Virus record (IMG/VR): IMGVR_UViG_3300045594_000287 | Span: 32,001-96,000 of that record | Direction: 5' to 3' (one strand) | Length of the DNA: 64,000 nucleotides | From: a virus | Lineage: Duplodnaviria > Caudoviricetes | In this document: positions 56,701 through 64,000 of the stretch, piece after piece | Layout of the letters: each line of letters starts with the position of its first letter | Numbering within the stretch: the first letter of the stretch is position 1 | The notes under the pieces: generated by a model | The model's database searches: none | What the model was told of the DNA's origin: nothing | Seen by the model: the letters and a program-made list of their open reading frames with translations, nothing else | Translations under genes and position numbers: made by a program

Positions 56701-57645
56701 ATGGCTATATTAAAATGGAAGAATGCGAAAGACTGGATCTCATTTTATGTTGATTCTATCGCACTCCGTTTGAGAAAAGATAAGAACCTCAGTGACGTGA
56801 ACGATGTCGTGGCAGCCAGGAACAACCTGGAGCTCAGTGGAGTGAATAACCACACCCATTATCACGACGACCATTATATGCCGCTGATAAATCGTGAAGA
56901 GAAATCACGTACCACGGAACGAGACTCTTCCTCGTTCTGCATCACAGGAGATGTCGAAGCTCCTTTTGTCGGCTTCACTAATGATATGAAAGTGATGTTG
57001 CAGGCGAAGAATGTCATCGCTACTACCACAATGATCAATGATGGAAGCAATATTCCAGTTAAACTTACCGGTGCAAGTAATACAGGAATACAACAAATCC
57101 GTACTACGGGGGTGACTGCTGATGCGGCAGGAAACCTCACTTCAACCAGCGTGCAGTCAGGTTCTATAAGCGGAACGGTAGCCAATTTCAGCACAGTAAA
57201 TGCTCAAAAAGTATACAATGCCATTTGGAATGACTATGCTGAATTCTTCCCCCGCGGTGGAGAAACCAACCCTGGCGATCTGATTATGCTTGACATTAAG
57301 AGCAAGAAAGAGCAATATATAAGAGCAACGAAAGATGCGCAGCTCATTGTCGGAGTCCATAGTGATGAATTCGCCATGCTCATCGGCGGAGAGAAGCCGG
57401 CTGCTGGCGAAGATTATTTCAAGACGAACATCGAGAAGTATATCCCCGTAGCCTTGGCTGGCCGCGTCCACGTCAACTTCACTGGCGCGTCTGCAAAGGG
57501 CGGGAAAGTAGTTCCGAGTGATATCCCGGGCTATGCACGTCTTTATAATCCAGAGAAAGATACTCTGGATAGAGTAATTGGATATCTCGTTGAATCCGAT
57601 GACTCCACGGGGGAAAGAAAGCTTAAGATCAAAATCGGGAGATAA
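56701..57645 (+). CDS. Tail fibre protein with C-terminal intramolecular chaperone/autocleavage-like domain
   Basis: KDKNLSDV.DV.AARNNLEL, HTHYHDDHY, and WNDYAEFF...GVHSD...IPVALAGRVHV...PGYA...VIG (peptidase G2/IMC-like pattern). Confidence 0.65.
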   Translation: MAILKWKNAKDWISFYVDSIALRLRKDKNLSDVNDVVAARNNLELSGVNNHTHYHDDHYMPLINREEKSRTTERDSSSFCITGDVEAPFVGFTNDMKVMLQAKNVIATTTMINDGSNIPVKLTGASNTGIQQIRTTGVTADAAGNLTSTSVQSGSISGTVANFSTVNAQKVYNAIWNDYAEFFPRGGETNPGDLIMLDIKSKKEQYIRATKDAQLIVGVHSDEFAMLIGGEKPAAGEDYFKTNIEKYIPVALAGRVHVNFTGASAKGGKVVPSDIPGYARLYNPEKDTLDRVIGYLVESDDSTGERKLKIKIGR

Positions 57646-57647
57646 TT

Positions 57648-58628
57648 ATGGATCTGATCATTAAACCTACGAAGGCTTGCAACTTCGCTTGCACCTTCTG
57701 CTCTTCTAATAAAATATCGAAGGCATTAACACTCGACCTGGAAAAGGTATTTCCGATCCTTCTCGAGAATGATGTCCAGACGATCATAGTAAACGGCGGC
57801 GATCCACTGATGGTCCCGCCGGCTTATTATGAGAGGCTTATCAATTTCCTGGACGAACATGACATGAAGACTACTATATCTTTCACGTCGAATCTCTGGG
57901 ATTTCTTTTTGCATCCAGACAAATGGGAAAAACTATTCAAGGATGAACGAATGGGAGTCTGCACTTCGTTCCAATATGGAGGAGAACGAAGGATAGCTGA
58001 TGGCCAAGAATTCACGGAAGAACTGTTCCGTAAAGTGTTCTCATTATTCGAAGACAGGATTGGATACAAGCTCTCATTCATCTCTGTCATCACCAGGAAC
58101 AACGAAGAACGAGTACTCGATACCGTAAGGCTTGCGAAAGAACTCGGAACGGAATGCAAGATAAACCCAGCTTTCAAATCCGGACGTAGCGAGGAGTTCT
58201 ACCCCCTATATAAGGCGTATGGAAGATACCTCGATATCATCAAAGCTGGTCTGGCAGAATATGAGTTCAACAGCAAGAACCTCAAGCAGCTGTTTGGGTC
58301 AAGCAACGTGTGCTGCCCATACAACAGGAATTGCTACAAGACCATCCGTTGCATAAGTCCAGACGGACTGATCCATAGCTGCGGGGCCTTCAATGACGAC
58401 CATTACATGAATGCCGCCCAGGGGAAGAAGACATACTGCCTAGGCCAATATGACGAGAAAGAGCTGGCAAGGGATTTCAAGATGCTGAAGCCGGCATGCC
58501 TTTCCTGCGACATGTTCCGGTTCTGCAACTCATGCTACAAGCAGATCGCTGACATCACGAGCAGCGGCACGACGGAAGAACACTGCACAGGCATGAAAGC
58601 ATTAGAGGGGAGACTGAAAAGCATATGA
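57648..58628 (+). CDS. Radical SAM/SPASM-domain enzyme 1
   Basis: LIIKPTKACNFACTFC (CxxxCxxC), GGDPL, and C-terminal C..C...ISPDG.IHSC...CLSC.....C..C. Confidence 0.9.
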   Translation: MDLIIKPTKACNFACTFCSSNKISKALTLDLEKVFPILLENDVQTIIVNGGDPLMVPPAYYERLINFLDEHDMKTTISFTSNLWDFFLHPDKWEKLFKDERMGVCTSFQYGGERRIADGQEFTEELFRKVFSLFEDRIGYKLSFISVITRNNEERVLDTVRLAKELGTECKINPAFKSGRSEEFYPLYKAYGRYLDIIKAGLAEYEFNSKNLKQLFGSSNVCCPYNRNCYKTIRCISPDGLIHSCGAFNDDHYMNAAQGKKTYCLGQYDEKELARDFKMLKPACLSCDMFRFCNSCYKQIADITSSGTTEEHCTGMKALEGRLKSI

Positions 58629-59452
58629 CACTGTACATAAAAGTCACGGAAAGCTGCAACTTGCATTGCCCCTTCTGCTACATCAAGCAGAAGCCTGGTA
58701 CGATAGATATGGATTCGATCGACAGGGCAATGCAAGAGCTGCAGCCAAATCGAATCATCTTCCATGGAGGAGAGCCGCTCCTATATCCAAAGATCATCCT
58801 GGAGACGATCAAGCAGTATCCGGATATAGAATACTCGGTCACGTCGAACCTCATGGTTCCATTGACCGATCAGGTACTCGAAGTGATCAAGAGATGCAAG
58901 ATAGCTACAAGCTATTCCGTGGACAGGTTCACCGAAGAGCAATTCGAAGATTTCAAGGCGGCCGTGAAGATGGTAAGTTCTTACCAGCCGATAACCCTGC
59001 TTGTCACGTTATCCGAAGCCCAGCTGCAGCAGCCTCCAAAAATCCTGTCTGATACAATTAAGGAACTGGAGATCAGTAATATAACATTTGAAAGGCTTTT
59101 TACAGAACGCAAAAGCAAAGAGCTGTACGAACAAACGGACGAATATCTGCTGGAAGCATTCAAGCATGTCGATACCGAGAAGAACAACATGTTGCATTGG
59201 ATGGAAGACGCGATAAGGAGCAACGGCACCGTATTCAACCACGATTGCGATGTGCAGACATTGAATCCAGATGGTTCTCTTTGCGGATGCCCGAACCTCT
59301 ATCGAACGAGAATCCACGATCAGCGGAAAAGGGAATGCTTGTATTGCGATATATATCAATATTGCAAAGAAGATTGCCCGAGCTTCGGTGGCATATGCTG
59401 TTTTCCTAAGAAGACCTTCCAATCAATATTGAAAGCGAGCGTGAATAAATAA
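58625..59452 (+). CDS. Radical SAM/SPASM-domain enzyme 2
   Basis: YIKVTESCNLHCPFCY, FHGGEPLL, TLNPDGSLCGCP, CLYCDIYQYCKEDC. Confidence 0.9.
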   Translation: MTLYIKVTESCNLHCPFCYIKQKPGTIDMDSIDRAMQELQPNRIIFHGGEPLLYPKIILETIKQYPDIEYSVTSNLMVPLTDQVLEVIKRCKIATSYSVDRFTEEQFEDFKAAVKMVSSYQPITLLVTLSEAQLQQPPKILSDTIKELEISNITFERLFTERKSKELYEQTDEYLLEAFKHVDTEKNNMLHWMEDAIRSNGTVFNHDCDVQTLNPDGSLCGCPNLYRTRIHDQRKRECLYCDIYQYCKEDCPSFGGICCFPKKTFQSILKASVNK

Positions 59453-60003
59453 TGAATACAGGCGACACTATAACCCCTGAGGGTTTAGCATATCATATCA
59501 ATGATAACTTGAAAGAGAAGATTCAGGACTATGTGCATTGGTGGCTCAGCGCGCCACCGAACTTCGATGACAACTGGGATAAGATCTTGCAGAATACAGA
59601 CAACCTGGCTGCGATAACCAGTGACATGATCGGGAAGAAAGGCGAATGGCTCAATGCAGCTTCATTCTATAAGAATATCCAGGCTACCGTTAACTCCTGG
59701 TCAACTGTCCGCCCATTCAGCGTGATCGGATATAAAGGCAACAACACGAATGGTGGAACGCCTACCTATACGAAAGTGTATAGTGAGATGCGCTATGCCA
59801 ACATAAAGGTAGCACATGAAGACATACTCGGCCGGGCCGGGCAGCCTTTCACAGCCGGCAGCATCGCTTCTGCAGAAACCATGAACCAGCTGATAAACAA
59901 CATCTTCAGGCAGTGGAAAGATCTTCCTATCTATACCTATGAATCAAAGAACTGTCACGGCAACTGCCATGATAACTGCCATGGATCTGGCGGCTGGCGT
60001 TGA
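59452..60003 (+). CDS. 183-aa virion-like protein with C-terminal (NCHx)3 tail; candidate radical SAM substrate
   Basis: Ends ESKNCHGNCHDNCHGSGGWR; its only cysteines are in that tail; TAATG coupling to radical SAM 2. Confidence 0.75.
   Translation: MNTGDTITPEGLAYHINDNLKEKIQDYVHWWLSAPPNFDDNWDKILQNTDNLAAITSDMIGKKGEWLNAASFYKNIQATVNSWSTVRPFSVIGYKGNNTNGGTPTYTKVYSEMRYANIKVAHEDILGRAGQPFTAGSIASAETMNQLINNIFRQWKDLPIYTYESKNCHGNCHDNCHGSGGWR
59950..59985 (+). repeat. Three tandem 12-bp repeats encoding NCH(G/D)
   Basis: AACTGTCACGGC AACTGCCATGAT AACTGCCATGGA. Confidence 0.9.
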
Positions 60004-60022
60004 TAATACCGGAGGGGAAACA

Positions 60023-60724
60023 ATGACAAAAGATTCCGTACTCACTGCTCTTCCATTCACCGAGGAGCAGCTCGATAAATACTTAGATGACATGGACAAG
60101 CATAGCTTCTATATTGAATTCAGTGATTGCAAACTGAAAGGCAACAAGCTGCTGAACTACATATACAACTCGGGAATGGAATGTGATCTGCATCTGACCG
60201 ATTTTACTTCGAACGATCTCGAGGGGTTCGTGAAAGACTATATCTGTACAGACAAGATCGTCAACATCCCTGCTGTGAATGATATCTGGTGTGATATCCT
60301 CCTGTATCGAATAGAGAAAGAGATATTCGATACGAATAAAGAAGAGAAAGAGTTTATAGAAAGATTTTATGAAGATCACGGTGACCTGATTGATGAGTTG
60401 TTTGATATATTGTTTAGCTTAAAAGCTCATCTTATTGCTGCCATCGTCAACGATGATGATGGAATGATTGAGGGGAAAGAATCACGCAGCATGAATGAGG
60501 TTGGCCTTAACTTCGTCACGCTCAGGAACTCTGGAGCATTCTGGAACGTCCTTACCAGGATAGACTCCCTTGGGCTTCCCGTGTACAACTACAAGGATTT
60601 CCAAGAATTCAGCTACGATGGAAGAAAGATACGCCACAATTTCCTTGATGAATTCGGACCATTCTCCATCTTAAGCATATACATCAAAGACTCTATAGAA
60701 AGGGCTGGAAGTGCCGATGAATAA
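60023..60724 (+). CDS. Hypothetical acidic protein in the radical SAM cluster (233 aa)
   Basis: GGAGGGG RBS before the ATG at 60023; no CxxxCxxC motif. Confidence 0.7.
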   Translation: MTKDSVLTALPFTEEQLDKYLDDMDKHSFYIEFSDCKLKGNKLLNYIYNSGMECDLHLTDFTSNDLEGFVKDYICTDKIVNIPAVNDIWCDILLYRIEKEIFDTNKEEKEFIERFYEDHGDLIDELFDILFSLKAHLIAAIVNDDDGMIEGKESRSMNEVGLNFVTLRNSGAFWNVLTRIDSLGLPVYNYKDFQEFSYDGRKIRHNFLDEFGPFSILSIYIKDSIERAGSADE

Positions 60725-61961
60725 AACTATTCCTATCAGACAGTACAAGATCGATTACGAGACCTTATCCAAAGAGTTCCCCGAGATCATCCCTGCAGAC
60801 ACAGAAGCTTCTATCGATGGCTTCATATCGAAAGGGAAACTTTACCTGAAATCCTCTGCGGATAAAAGTAACCCGCTTGTTATTGTCTCAAACGATCATA
60901 CATTTGACCATAAGTTCCTGGATAAGGAAGATACCATAACATTGAAGCTGGCTGATCCTGCCAAGTCATTCTCCACTATGCCAGAATATGGTTTCACGAT
61001 AGATGACAATATCAGCGTGCATCAGTTCACAGTAGATAAAGATATGGCTGATAAACTTATCAGCAATAATGGTTTCCATTATTGGGGGATGGACAAGCAG
61101 CTGCATGTCAATGCCCACACATACAAACCAGATACGGTCATCGAATATGCGAATCGTATCCTCGAGAAAGGATATTCTTATCCGATCGTCTGTTATGTCG
61201 ATACGACCATCCAGATAGAGAAGAATGATTATATCCCATACCTGCATGAGCTGCTGGAAATCGGAAACGTCCCTTTTCGGATAATGACCTACAAGGACAT
61301 CAGGTATCTGATGCATGTGACTCCAGAATTGTATACGATAATATACGGGATTCCCAGTAATAAACGCTATCAGAAAGAAGATTCCGTTGACATAAGCAGC
61401 TTCCTCTTGACCAATTACAGCGATAAGCGCGACGCAATCAAGAACTACCAGATAAAGGTAAGCAAGCCTGAGGACTCGGAATATGCATATATCGACAACC
61501 CGTTTGATCAATGCTTCTCTTACTATTTCATTTTTGATTCCGACCATGCTTTCCTCAACGATCGGCTCATAACCAACATCATCAACAGGAATGACCTCGA
61601 TTATGTATCCTGGGATGGAGATGAGTCTGGAGACATGGCAGCCGGCATGCATCTGAAGAATGCATTATATGGACGCACTCCGGTCAAGCAGATCCATCAT
61701 GCCCATCCAGGTGAGGCAAAGGACACGGATGCTTTCGAGGAATATTGCGTGGAACATCATATCGACCTTGGTCTGTTTGATATGTTGTCATTTGGATACT
61801 CGAACGATAAGATCGAATTTACGAAATCTATCCTGGATAAATTCAAGGCGGATCTCATCGTTATCGAGAATGACCAGTCAGCACTCTTGGGAGTAGAGAT
61901 GCTGCAAGACCTTCTCGACAAGGACGACCTTTGTATCAAATATCTGAAACTTAAGAAGTAG
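60717..61961 (+). CDS. Hypothetical acidic protein in the radical SAM cluster (~414 aa)
   Basis: Long ORF overlapping the upstream stop; no recognised motif; start at 60711 (GTG) or 60717 (ATG). Confidence 0.7.
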   Translation: MNKTIPIRQYKIDYETLSKEFPEIIPADTEASIDGFISKGKLYLKSSADKSNPLVIVSNDHTFDHKFLDKEDTITLKLADPAKSFSTMPEYGFTIDDNISVHQFTVDKDMADKLISNNGFHYWGMDKQLHVNAHTYKPDTVIEYANRILEKGYSYPIVCYVDTTIQIEKNDYIPYLHELLEIGNVPFRIMTYKDIRYLMHVTPELYTIIYGIPSNKRYQKEDSVDISSFLLTNYSDKRDAIKNYQIKVSKPEDSEYAYIDNPFDQCFSYYFIFDSDHAFLNDRLITNIINRNDLDYVSWDGDESGDMAAGMHLKNALYGRTPVKQIHHAHPGEAKDTDAFEEYCVEHHIDLGLFDMLSFGYSNDKIEFTKSILDKFKADLIVIENDQSALLGVEMLQDLLDKDDLCIKYLKLKK

Positions 61962-61972
61962 GGGGAACGAGC

Positions 61973-62923
61973 ATGATTGTATTCATTAAGCCGGTAGAGG
62001 CATGTAACCTCAAGTGCCTGCATTGCTACAATTGTGCCAACAGCAACTCCATCGACTTCAAAGCTCTTGGCTCTTTCCTTTCCTGTGTGAATAGGGAACA
62101 GCCGAAGAGCTTTTTTGTCTTACATGGCGGAGAGCCGCTGCTGGCAGACACGGATAAGACATTGGACTTGGTCAAGGGTTTCCCTGATAATCCATGGAGG
62201 ATAACCACCAACCTTACTATGCCGCTCACAAGGGGCAGGATGGAGATCATCTCCTTGATGGATGAGGTCAGGACGTCTTTCGATATCGGTATCCGCTTCG
62301 GAACACTCCACAATCTCATGATGTGGAAGCACAACATGCAGGAACTGGTAGCAAATGGCATAAACGTCTACGTGAATATATGCTTCACGAAACAGCTGTT
62401 AAAAAAAGATCCAAGGAAACTGATGGACATGATGCACCACCTTCATATAAAGACATTGAGCTTCGAACGGATCTGTAAGGCCGGCCGAGCGGCTGAAGGC
62501 GTGGACTTCATTCCATCATATGAAGATGTCGATGAATGGTTATGCAAGCTGTACCAGGTAGCAAAAGATTTTAAGGACGTGAAAGTAAGAGAGTTCGAAA
62601 ACATTGCCTTTGGCATCATGAAAGAGTATAATTACTACAGAGGCAAGGAGTGCTGCATCGCCACGCTTACCGTGAATGCCGATGGCACTATTGGCCGCTG
62701 CCCAAACGATGCGCAGGTATCAGTTTATGGAAACATGAAAGAACCGGAAAAGGCCATTGCGGCCAAGATGTGTGCCGGATGTCAAAGGGTAAAGACGGAA
62801 TGCCTTTCATGTAATTCATTCGAAGATTGCCAAGGGGGATGCCCCGCAGCAGAATGGCAGGGGAGCTCCTGCCCATACCCGAAAAAGCTATCCCAATTGA
62901 TCAAGGAGGATCTCGGCCGATGA
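61973..62923 (+). CDS. Radical SAM/SPASM-domain enzyme 3
   Basis: FIKPVEACNLKCLHCY, LHGGEPLL, CC..TLTVNADGTIGRCP, CLSC.....CQGGC.........CPYPK. Confidence 0.9.
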   Translation: MIVFIKPVEACNLKCLHCYNCANSNSIDFKALGSFLSCVNREQPKSFFVLHGGEPLLADTDKTLDLVKGFPDNPWRITTNLTMPLTRGRMEIISLMDEVRTSFDIGIRFGTLHNLMMWKHNMQELVANGINVYVNICFTKQLLKKDPRKLMDMMHHLHIKTLSFERICKAGRAAEGVDFIPSYEDVDEWLCKLYQVAKDFKDVKVREFENIAFGIMKEYNYYRGKECCIATLTVNADGTIGRCPNDAQVSVYGNMKEPEKAIAAKMCAGCQRVKTECLSCNSFEDCQGGCPAAEWQGSSCPYPKKLSQLIKEDLGR

Positions 62924-63777
62924 ACATACTACCTAGTTACGCTTGCAACTTTCATTGCCCATTCTGTGCGATTCACCAGCAGGATTGCGGGCAGCTGCTC
63001 AATCTTGACTATGCCAAGCAGCAGCTGTCTTCGATTCCCGGCATAAGGCAGATAGACATCCTCGGAGGGGAACCATCGCTATTACCAGATGAATACTTAT
63101 CAGAGCTGATTGACATATGCACATCAAGACTTAATGGCAAGCTGCCAGGCATGTATACCAATCTCAGTCGTGTATCTCCATTGATCGACAGGGTCAAGCT
63201 CACTGTAAGTTTCGATCCTGGGATGAGAGAAGCAAGGAACAGCGTTATCCAGAACATGCTCATGTTGGATAATGAATTCGATATCAACACGATTGTCAGT
63301 TCAAAGCTCGTAGCTCTGGGTGCCGGCCATATAGAGAAGATGCTATCGAGATTCCGTATGGCAAAGCGAATATGCTTGAGCTCTTTCACGCATTTTCCAG
63401 GCATGCCAGATTATACCCCAGCTCCTGAGGATATGCTGAAATTCATGAAAGATATCCTGTCATTGGATGAGCCACATCGTATCCACTTCTCTCCTATATC
63501 ATCTATAAGAGAAGGATCACGAAAAAGCTATGCAGCAGAGGAATCTGCAGAGATGCTGCCAAGTGGCAAGTATCGATATGCACTTCGAGACGTCACGAGC
63601 GCAAAAGAGTTCGAGACATTTGACGCCGTCAAGAAATACCGATACAACAATGAATCTTATCCTGGCGAATGCAATAGCTGCAGATACAGAGGACAATGCC
63701 TGAATAAATACCGGACAGAAGCTGGATGCTATTGGGACAAGAAGATCATGGAGACAATAGAGGAGAGGCTATCATGA
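62920..63777 (+). CDS. Radical SAM enzyme 4 (reduced SPASM region)
   Basis: AAGGAGG RBS and ATGA overlap at 62920; ILPSYACNFHCPFC, ILGGEPS, C-terminal CNSCRYRGQC...C. Confidence 0.88.
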   Translation: MNILPSYACNFHCPFCAIHQQDCGQLLNLDYAKQQLSSIPGIRQIDILGGEPSLLPDEYLSELIDICTSRLNGKLPGMYTNLSRVSPLIDRVKLTVSFDPGMREARNSVIQNMLMLDNEFDINTIVSSKLVALGAGHIEKMLSRFRMAKRICLSSFTHFPGMPDYTPAPEDMLKFMKDILSLDEPHRIHFSPISSIREGSRKSYAAEESAEMLPSGKYRYALRDVTSAKEFETFDAVKKYRYNNESYPGECNSCRYRGQCLNKYRTEAGCYWDKKIMETIEERLS

Positions 63778-64000
63778 ACATATACGCAAGCTATGCCTGC
63801 AATGCAAATTGTGCATTCTGCTCACTGCATGACCGCCCGGGTAAACGGATTGCCCTGGATTGGCTAGAGCAGCAACTGGAAAAGCACGAAGACCTATGCG
63901 AGGATATCAACATCCTGGGCGGGGAACCATCCGTACTGCCACTTGATTATCAGGAGCGCCTGGTCGACATCTGCACGAAGGCGGCAGGAGAGAAGCCGTA
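63774..64000 (+). CDS. Radical SAM enzyme 5 (3'-truncated; absent from the ORF track)
   Basis: AGGAGAGG RBS and ATGA overlap. Manual translation gives MNIYASYACNANCAFCSLHDRPGKRIALDWLEQQLEKHEDLCEDINILGGEPSVLP... Confidence 0.85.
   Translation, partial: MNIYASYACNANCAFCSLHDRPGKRIALDWLEQQLEKHEDLCEDINILGGEPSVLPLDYQERLVDICTKAAGEKP

Follow-up and report, generated by a model that had tools for sequence, protein, structure and literature searches.

A phage radical SAM gene cluster around a Cys-His-tailed protein as a divergent, oxygenase-free member of a widespread cassette

We analyzed a stretch of 64,000 nucleotides (the window), bases 32001-96000 of the 106,938-bp IMG/VR viral record IMGVR_UViG_3300045594_000287 (CheckV completeness, 45%), the last part of which holds a cluster of radical S-adenosylmethionine (rSAM) genes around X, a protein with a C-terminal Cys-His repeat tail. 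All large genes of the record lie on the + strand, with baseplate and tail-fiber-like genes (phrog_6, phrog_16586, phrog_23059) upstream of the cluster. The window end cuts the cluster, and its genes carry on in the remainder of the same record (L002; L002 coordinate = window coordinate - 55999), forming a co-directional module of ~11 kb from fib314 to rSAM6, of which the window region is the first two thirds (Table 1). The initial annotation of this DNA had reported five rSAM genes that follow a fiber-like gene through tight junctions, and this layout is borne out: the five open reading frames (ORFs) start exactly where they had been placed, rSAM1 begins after a 2-nt gap, 4-nt ATGA overlaps occur at 58625, 62920, and 63774 and a 1-nt overlap at 59452, and the first strong + strand terminator-like site lies at L002 17264, after the genes for the 1054-aa and 689-aa proteins. 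Its count of at least five enzymes rises further, with a sixth rSAM and a degenerate seventh without the cluster motif just past the window.

Table 1. Features of the module. Positions are those of the window unless given as L002.
Feature	Position	Strand	Description
fib314	56701..57645	+	314-aa fiber-like protein; gene always preceding the cassette in this sub-type
rSAM1	57648..58628	+	most conserved core rSAM/SPASM enzyme of the cassette
rSAM2	58625..59452	+	rSAM/SPASM; sub-type-specific paralog of the rSAM preceding X
X	59452..60003	+	183-aa folded protein with disordered Cys-His repeat tail; presumed substrate
tail NCHGNCHDNCHGSGGWR	59950..60000	+	C-terminal end of X, read directly from the sequence
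Y	60023..60724	+	233-aa conserved partner, phrog_20767
Z	60711..61961	+	416-aa acidic protein, sub-type-specific
rSAM3	61973..62923	+	rSAM/SPASM; core orthogroup usually adjoining X
rSAM4	62920..63777	+	divergent rSAM-B type, shortened auxiliary-cluster region
rSAM5	63774..64000 (window end); full gene L002 7775-8656	+	293 aa, tandem paralog of rSAM4
u250	L002 8637-9389		250-aa degenerate rSAM-B paralog
u457	L002 9322-10695		457 aa; f4-like N-domain and Cys-rich TIM-barrel-like domain
rSAM6	L002 10641-11540		sixth rSAM, PF04055 40.7 bits
1054-aa protein, then 689-aa protein	L002 11609-14773 (1054-aa protein)		both syntenic in relatives

Searches of Pfam and NCBIfam find no transporter, protease/peptidase, or sulfatase family among the cluster proteins, including those beyond the window, as the initial annotation had noted for such genes, and family searches of the same proteins reveal neither a glycosyltransferase nor a nucleotide-sugar gene. 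No Pfam, NCBIfam, or PDB-sequence family matches X, Y, Z, fib314, u250, or u457, and near-identical phage DNA is absent from INPHARED.

The CX3CX2C motif is present in all six rSAMs, and in rSAM1-5, as previously annotated, it stands at residue 9-11 with GG(E/D)P at residue 48-52 (CX3CX2C at residue 11 in rSAM1 and rSAM2 and at residue 9 in rSAM4). Auxiliary Cys motifs follow near the C terminus: CX2CX5CX2C at residue 284 of rSAM1, CX2CX5CX3C at residue 238 of rSAM2 and residue 277 of rSAM3, and just CX2CX5C in rSAM4 (residue 251) and likewise in rSAM5. Matches to PF04055, a model that the initial annotation had named for searching along with TIGR04085, exceed the gathering cut-off of 29.5 bits for rSAM1 (39.1), rSAM2 (46.1), rSAM4 (32.5), and rSAM6, while rSAM3 (18.9) and rSAM5 (24.5-26.5) stay under it and TIGR04085 (SPASM) scores 22.5 bits on rSAM3 versus a cut-off of 27. 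All of rSAM1-5 match the phage family phrog_1802 (E values from 1.5e-40 for rSAM1 through 1.5e-28 for rSAM3 to 2e-11 for rSAM5). Judged by these motifs and profiles, rSAM1-6 are members of the radical SAM superfamily and are likely of an rSAM/SPASM type. The nearest NCBIfam models (TIGR04083, DynA, PapB, CbpB, AmcB, anSME, DarE, HxsC) score 20-55 bits against cut-offs of 180-650, a pattern in which the cluster rSAMs resemble peptide and protein maturases and, by profile score, are family members of none. Identity as a defense system was rejected, with PADLOC yielding generic viperin-core matches alone on the cluster. With respect to orthology, rSAM1 and rSAM3 belong to two of four core orthogroups of the cassette and rSAM4 and rSAM5 to the divergent rSAM-B type, whereas rSAM2 and rSAM6 are sub-type-specific, the rSAM2 orthogroup being confined to this record and the IMG/VR loci L006 and L007. 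The u250 protein is an rSAM-B paralog without CX3CX2C (hhalign 92.5%, E 4.7e-7) and may be a non-catalytic scaffold.

At the center of the cluster, X ends in NCHGNCHDNCHGSGGWR, the Cys/His-repeat end of a 183-aa protein that had been picked out at first reading, and a variant of a consensus (CHxS)3-RGRR tail. Its AlphaFold model is an alpha/beta domain (predicted local distance difference test [pLDDT] score 87, predicted template modeling score 0.79) with low confidence for residues 168-183, the last 16 residues being disordered. We observe that C168, H169, C172, H173, C176, and H177 are invariant in 24 homologs, to which P36 and R87 are also common, and that the bodies of these homologs are just 14-27% identical. 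The fold recurs in BFVD, in the Agrobacterium phage Atu_ph07 protein A0A2L0UZF9 (296 aa, probability 1.00) and a 178-aa phage protein (template modeling [TM] score 0.78), with no match among PDB folds (Foldseek best E 0.17; VIA best Z 3.4), no NCBIfam match at E <= 0.1, and no peptidoglycan-binding domain match in Pfam or NCBIfam. A part of the chain of three gut Myoviridae sp. ctijX18 proteins of 504-660 aa (BFVD A0A8S5USJ8, A0A8S5USJ7, A0A8S5USV2) also matches the X fold with probability 1.00, and from these models X-like domains may also be fused into larger proteins.

Run against 1.84 billion cluster representatives, a profile of X recovers 866 of them (615 at E <= 1e-10), with the tail at the very end in 144 of the best 150. 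The tail is always C-terminal among tail-bearing homologs, and 156 of 161 distinct proteins have exactly three repeats. Across those 161 proteins the fourth repeat position is Ser in 406, Asn in 48, Ala in 25, and Asp in 3 cases, with Gly never seen (0 of 489; an independent sample likewise gave 0 of 432). The third position, which follows His, varies and is Gly in 84 of 489 cases (17-18% across the two samples). That Gly never occupies the fourth position fits a need for a beta-carbon there, as in triceptide or beta-thioether cross-links. The His-x-(Ser/Asn) unit fits the aromatic-x-x pattern of triceptides, and the Cys-x3 spacing recalls PapB substrates. Taking alignments and models together, X is a genuine protein family, more than a leader, with a substrate-like architecture of variable folded body and invariant disordered C-terminal tail, and the likely substrate is X itself, not a fiber. 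In many marine phages and some Bdellovibrionota (L025, L046, L099, L107, L109, L119, L136, and others), X occurs twice in tandem, either in a short form (86-140 aa) or at full length; just the last ~53 residues of the short and full-length classes can be aligned.

The same arrangement recurs in hundreds of viral contigs, far beyond chance. An IMG/VR scan with an rSAM1 alignment yielded 333 contigs with relatives, and clustering the ORFs of 84 loci gave a consensus cassette of JmjC/cupin, rSAM, X then Y, a protein family f20, further rSAMs, 2-oxoglutarate (2OG) oxygenase, rSAM-B, and a common protein f4, with 4-9 rSAMs. An ORF ending in CH..CH..CH was present in 41 of the 84 loci fetched in this way, the rSAM3 orthogroup in 72, and the rSAM-B family in 71. 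Orthologs of rSAM1 with 41-45% identity occur in Pseudomonas phage pPa_SNUABM_DT01, RSL2/RSF1-like phages of Ralstonia/Burkholderia, Atu_ph07, and Sinorhizobium phage Phosso. The annotated neighborhoods of these orthologs in named jumbo phages show an rSAM, a small protein, a Y-like protein, a larger protein, and more rSAMs, usually with a cupin in front and 2OG-Fe(II) oxygenases behind. BLAST detects no similarity between the small proteins and X, yet each of them finishes with three CHxx repeats and a basic end (e.g., ...CHSSCHSSCHGSRGRR). X itself carries the C-terminal (Cys-His-x-Ser/Asn)x3 tail on a body that is homologous by alignment and fold, with the basic end altered to GGWR.

The reverse scan started from the tail DNA pattern alone and matched at least 120 viral stretches, 80 of which were examined; an in-frame C-terminal tail was found in 79 of these, accompanied within the short stretch by a cassette rSAM in 72 and by Y in 44. 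Among bacteria (one genome per species), 37 of 47 matches were genuine tails, mostly in Bdellovibrionota metagenome-assembled genomes (MAGs), some on contigs of 1.3-2.8 Mb, and 35 of the 37 had cassette rSAMs. The other 10 matches, mostly in genomes such as Frankia, Microbacterium, and Paraburkholderia, lacked an in-frame C-terminal tail ORF and were treated as chance. Tail and rSAM genes are thus linked in both search directions, in phages and in Bdellovibrionota. Regarding the co-occurrence anticipated at first reading, the tailed gene is usually present; adjacency to tail genes is common, not universal.

The published literature that we searched contains no paper on a (CHxS)3 protein, this cassette, or the role of these phage rSAM arrays: jumbo-phage papers just list such rSAM genes, and a pelagimyophage paper mentions rSAM cassettes in a host recognition cluster. 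For the marine X types we found no cultured relatives, and the FLC6 and S13 papers are without proteomics. A different rSAM cluster is present in the Ralstonia phages RP12/RP31, after two YomR fiber-like genes and two unannotated small ORFs, and comprises a 537-aa rSAM, an "arylsulfatase regulator," a MoaA-like protein, and MgoB (PMC5468394, supplementary gene tables).

Experimental evidence bearing on X comes from Attai et al., who analyzed Atu_ph07 particles by gel-slice electrospray ionization tandem mass spectrometry (Table S5; PMC6102473). The computed masses of gp170 (31.89 kDa), gp176 (66.07 kDa), and gp177 (21.66 kDa) match those in Table S5, and the RefSeq and Table S5 numberings are therefore identical. 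For the X ortholog gp170, 8 unique peptides gave 35% coverage; the protein appeared in slices 1-9 and was most abundant in slice 1, where 87-139-kDa proteins also peak, whereas the virion list does not include the rSAMs gp165, gp168, and gp171, the Y protein gp169, or the cupin gp172 (PMC6102473). Coding sequences 170-215 are named there as one of three virion-protein clusters (PMC6102473). These data support a virion role of the X ortholog, and its presence in slice 1 hints at a sodium dodecyl sulfate (SDS)-stable high-mass form. The genomic context in the present record is structural, with baseplate/fiber genes 5' of the cluster and, 3' of it, a 1054-aa protein that shares N-terminal PxxPxxGxLW...YxDGxxW repeats with the Atu_ph07 virion protein gp176 (L005 3535-5358), itself encoded a few genes from the Atu_ph07 cassette.

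The remaining cluster proteins are less easily placed. Y, with GGAGG 7 nt 5' of its ATG and 60023 as the most likely start, matches phrog_20767 (E 4e-20), follows X in 31 of the 84 loci, and is homologous to the marine-cassette family f16 (hhalign 99.1%); its model has a pLDDT of 86. The idea that Y is an rSAM remnant, raised by weak matches to ChlB (Z 4.1) and anSME (Z 3.0), was rejected by profile comparison (probability < 1%). Homologs of Z are found in L006, L007, and L261 only; Pfam and profile comparisons return no family or profile match, profile comparison rejects a relationship with f20 and f275, which hold its position elsewhere, and its Atlas model (pLDDT 0.30) is too poor for use. 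Relatives of the u457 protein number 42 and share its synteny, with contigs as long as 344 kb; homology to f4 (hhalign 99.2%) covers the N-terminal part of u457, and its C-terminal 300 residues contain seven conserved Cys, including a terminal CX3CX2CX2C. Its Atlas model (pLDDT 0.62, low confidence) gives TM scores of 0.45-0.54 to four U32 clusters over residues 156-450, with rSAM/methyltransferase-labeled clusters aligning equally well, and PF01136 (peptidase U32) does not match even at E 10, leaving membership of the U32 family without sequence support. On this model, the Cys-rich C-terminal domain of u457 appears TIM-barrel-like; u457 is probably an Fe-S protein.

As for the gene that opens the module, fib314 has a fiber-type NLSDVND..ARNNLEL motif at its N terminus, no PHROG match, and homologs directly 5' of rSAM1 in L006, L007, and L261. 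Its C-terminal ~145 aa (window 57200-57645) are highly conserved (NAxWNDYAE..PRGxETxPGD..GVHSxEF..GRVHV) and its N-terminal two thirds are variable, the opposite of the usual pattern of fiber proteins; the C-terminal domain could be a chaperone or auto-processing domain. Farther upstream, 5' of the baseplate/fiber genes, three successive giant ORFs of 2146, 2883, and 2755 aa occupy window 6517-30130 on the + strand.

The explanation that we favor, with moderate confidence, is that this cassette of phages and Bdellovibrionota encodes rSAM/SPASM enzymes that act on the tail of X, that mature X joins the virion, and that the present locus is an oxygenase-free divergent member. Several rSAM/SPASM enzymes would act on the flexible C-terminal tail with its three Cys-His-x-(Ser/Asn) repeats, abstracting hydrogen atoms from it and installing cross-links or other changes, most likely bonds that join Cys-S or the His ring to the fourth repeat residue at its beta-carbon. 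Non-catalytic help would come from Y and the f4-like domain, and mature X would become part of the virion, probably at or near the fibers encoded on both sides. A virion protein is preferred over a secreted peptide because gp170 is in the virion proteome and the neighboring rSAMs are not, and because X shares the gp170 fold. The initial annotation had proposed a RiPP-like system (RiPPs are peptides made on ribosomes and modified post-translationally) serving a virion protein, and part of this stands, given the SPASM-type enzymes, the central position of X, the lack of export or peptidase genes, and gp170 in virions; the target is likely X and not a fiber.

Within the wider (Cys-His-x-Ser)3-RGRR cassette of jumbo phages, T4-like phages, and Bdellovibrionota, this locus has X, Y, rSAM1-type, X-adjacent core rSAMs, rSAM-B, and f4 in common. 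In contrast to the wider cassette, the tail of X ends in GSGG(W/Y/R)R, JmjC/cupin and 2OG oxygenases are lacking, f4 is fused to the Cys-rich TIM-barrel-like domain, u250, Z, and rSAM6 are added, and a fiber-like gene opens the module. We observe this sub-type in the present record, in L006 and L007, and in a 344-kb ENA contig (L261), always with fib314 directly before rSAM1, a tail ending in CHGSGG(W/R/Y)R or CHGSSGGW, Z, u250, and u457. The GSGG(W/Y/R)R end is rare relative to the usual SRGRR, occurring in 3 of 161 and 5 of 150 proteins. None of the sub-type loci contains a JmjC/cupin or 2OG oxygenase, and whole-record searches for PF13759 and PF08007 found no match in this record (45% complete) or in the records of L006 (87%) and L007 (100%); a DT01-like record, by contrast, has three oxygenase matches. 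NrdD, the class III ribonucleotide reductase that is sensitive to oxygen, is encoded in the oxygenase-free records of relatives. Among 40 records that carry the cassette, PF13759 is missing from all 5 with NrdD and present in 32 of the 35 that have no NrdD (Fisher P = 8.5e-5). A limitation is that the five NrdD records do not count as independent: judged by the similarity of rSAM1, this record forms a group with L006, L007, and L008, L171 lies far from them, and L153, with no rSAM1 ortholog in the stretch examined, is unplaced. In L171 and in a Bacilli MAG contig, six or seven rSAMs follow one another alongside X, again without an oxygenase.

Because oxygenases are absent and relatives carry NrdD, the sub-type may be read as the cassette's anaerobic form. 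Where a phage infects an aerobe, oxygen-dependent steps would be contributed by JmjC-type and 2OG-Fe(II) oxygenases, and in this sub-type those steps would be absent or taken over by the extra rSAMs and the Cys-rich, probably Fe-S, TIM-barrel-like protein, which would fit an anaerobic host. From gene content we rate this as an even call when put as a statement about adaptation and as better founded when put as a description. Two side observations concern the same genomes: the NrdD gene of the L006 record (G001 175444-178417), the closest relative, was matched in four pieces, one with an in-frame TGA, which suggests that insertions (inteins or introns) are present, and a terminase with intein and LAGLIDADG domains is encoded at L261 18136-20583.

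Several points weigh against the favored explanation. Modification of X is observed nowhere, and we infer every chemical step; the Cys/His tail could simply bind metal. The virion location comes from one distant ortholog, the sole experimental evidence found, in PEG (polyethylene glycol)-purified particles that are not fully specific, as the Atu_ph07 virion list also has some replication enzymes (PMC6102473), and the X orthologs of RSF1 and RSL2 are annotated just as hypothetical. A leader-binding RiPP recognition element (RRE) domain was not recognized in any of the rSAMs, which begin straight at the cluster motif with no N-terminal RRE domain seen, and Y, also relevant to the question of substrate recognition, has no fold match (Foldseek best E 0.026; VIA best Z 4.3; Atlas TM <= 0.37). 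With respect to the anaerobic reading, no NrdD is found in this record, which is 45% complete, and the NrdD/oxygenase contrast, as judged by rSAM1 similarity, perhaps represents 2-3 independent lineages.

A more specific version, which we consider possible though distinctly less probable, is that radical-derived cross-links in the tail fix X covalently or very tightly to a large virion fiber. The locus would then be the oxygen-independent version of the pathway, its oxygenase steps replaced by extra rSAMs and the U32-like Fe-S protein fused to f4, and the chemistry would be set by the oxygen regime of the host. Fixation to a large fiber would account for the migration of the 32-kDa Atu_ph07 ortholog in the SDS gel, where most of it stays at the top.

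Alternatively, the body of X could be a long leader from which the modified 16-residue tail is cut off as a diffusible RiPP acting as an antimicrobial, signal, or metal-binding peptide. The layout of a variable N-terminal part and conserved C-terminal core beside maturase-like rSAMs in both search directions is precursor-like, some phages have tandem short copies of X, and the enzymes share an rSAM core and a SPASM-type auxiliary Cys motif with RiPP maturases (XyeB, GrrM, FxsB, YhhB; PapB; DynA; DarE). The scores of 20-55 bits are, however, far from the cut-offs of those families (300-650), and for the triceptide models XyeB, GrrM, FxsB, and YhhB (18-35 bits versus 310-450) the resemblance lies in the substrate motif rather than in membership. 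Unlike in classical RiPP clusters, no RRE, leader peptidase, or exporter family is found in any cluster protein, and no protease or exporter lies in or beside the cassette of relatives either. The supposed leader is a conserved, confidently folded domain whose fold matches part of the gut Myoviridae proteins described above, the Atu_ph07 ortholog is found in virions, and the product appears to stay a protein; we consider a released peptide unlikely.

Similarly unlikely, in our assessment, is that the tail is a mere metal-binding or assembly motif and that the rSAMs act elsewhere, on a glycan, lipid, or nucleotide decorating the virion or host envelope. The long-fiber tip of T4 has His-x-His iron sites, three Cys and three His make a plausible metal site, and the cassette is accompanied by oxygenases and, in one relative, by an aminotransferase-like gene. 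Yet tail and rSAMs are very tightly linked both ways, including in minimal cassettes without a sugar enzyme, the cluster itself lacks glycosyltransferase and nucleotide-sugar genes, and a pure metal site does not predict the absence of Gly at the fourth repeat position.

Protein- or peptide-derived cofactors linked to rSAMs include pyrroloquinoline quinone (PQQ), mycofactocin, and the QhpC subunit matured by QhpD, and the C-terminal residues of X might likewise become a redox-active or metal-chelating group used in infection. A C-terminal target as in mycofactocin, the combination of rSAM/SPASM enzymes with oxygenases as in PQQ synthesis, and weak matches to mycofactocin (TIGR03962, E 8e-6) and QhpD (TIGR03906, E 7e-4) models agree with this, whereas the scores lie far under the family cut-offs, a partner dehydrogenase is not present, and a virion location does not suggest a metabolic cofactor, making a cofactor very improbable.

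Of the systems described so far, the HXS antiphage system is the nearest analogue, in which HxsB, HxsC, and HxsD mature the ~214-aa HxsA, a +8 Da change having been localized to one SHRSS repeat (Li et al., Nat Commun 2026, PMC13128918). The logic is similar, with rSAMs maturing a whole protein of ~200 aa, a short array of His-x-Ser-containing repeats, and a small non-enzymatic helper (PMC13128918). Membership fails on every model: HxsC, although the top NCBIfam match of rSAM4 and rSAM5, reaches 22.5 bits versus a cut-off of 267.9 and covers only the N-terminal 60-70 residues with the cluster-binding part, and HxsA (TIGR03979), HxsB, and HxsD have no match. Unlike in HXS, there are exactly three Cys-His-x-Ser/Asn repeats at the extreme C terminus, 4-9 rSAMs instead of 2, a phage-encoded cassette, and one ortholog in virions, and unlike HxsA, X has no peptidoglycan-binding domain match. 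That matured X blocks DNA entry by competing phages, as bacterial HxsA does, is the least probable of the explanations: HXS is the only described system in which rSAMs mature such a His-x-Ser-repeat protein (PMC13128918), but these differences, together with the PADLOC result, speak against it. A likeness to anaerobic sulfatase-maturating enzymes (anSME; TIGR03942) also exists, as these are rSAM/SPASM enzymes that oxidize Cys or Ser in a folded protein and rSAM1 and rSAM3 align with the model over nearly full length; unlike in anSME systems, scores are 31-36 bits where the cut-off is 349, a sulfatase gene is lacking, and the X tail is without the C/S-x-P/A-x-R signature.

What is new at this locus is a rare sub-type that lacks the oxygenases, ends the tail in CHGSGG(W/Y/R)R, and gains further rSAMs as well as a Cys-rich TIM-barrel-like protein, within a family that is spread, with the 866 cluster representatives in public data, over jumbo phages, marine T4-like phages, and predatory bacteria. 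The sub-type is a natural experiment on the oxygen-requiring steps, and if X is indeed fixed to a fiber, the same virion modification would be reached by two alternative chemistries. Cultivable carriers (Atu_ph07, RSF1/RSL2, and pPa_SNUABM_DT01) make direct testing possible. The post-translational chemistry of phage particles is almost unexplored, and the kit could affect adsorption, the stability of particles, or how they resist host proteases. If the favored explanation is true, radical SAM peptide chemistry would gain from the kit a new substrate motif and several new enzyme families, and devoting a set of 4-9 rSAMs to a single small virion protein would amount to virion maturation of a new kind.

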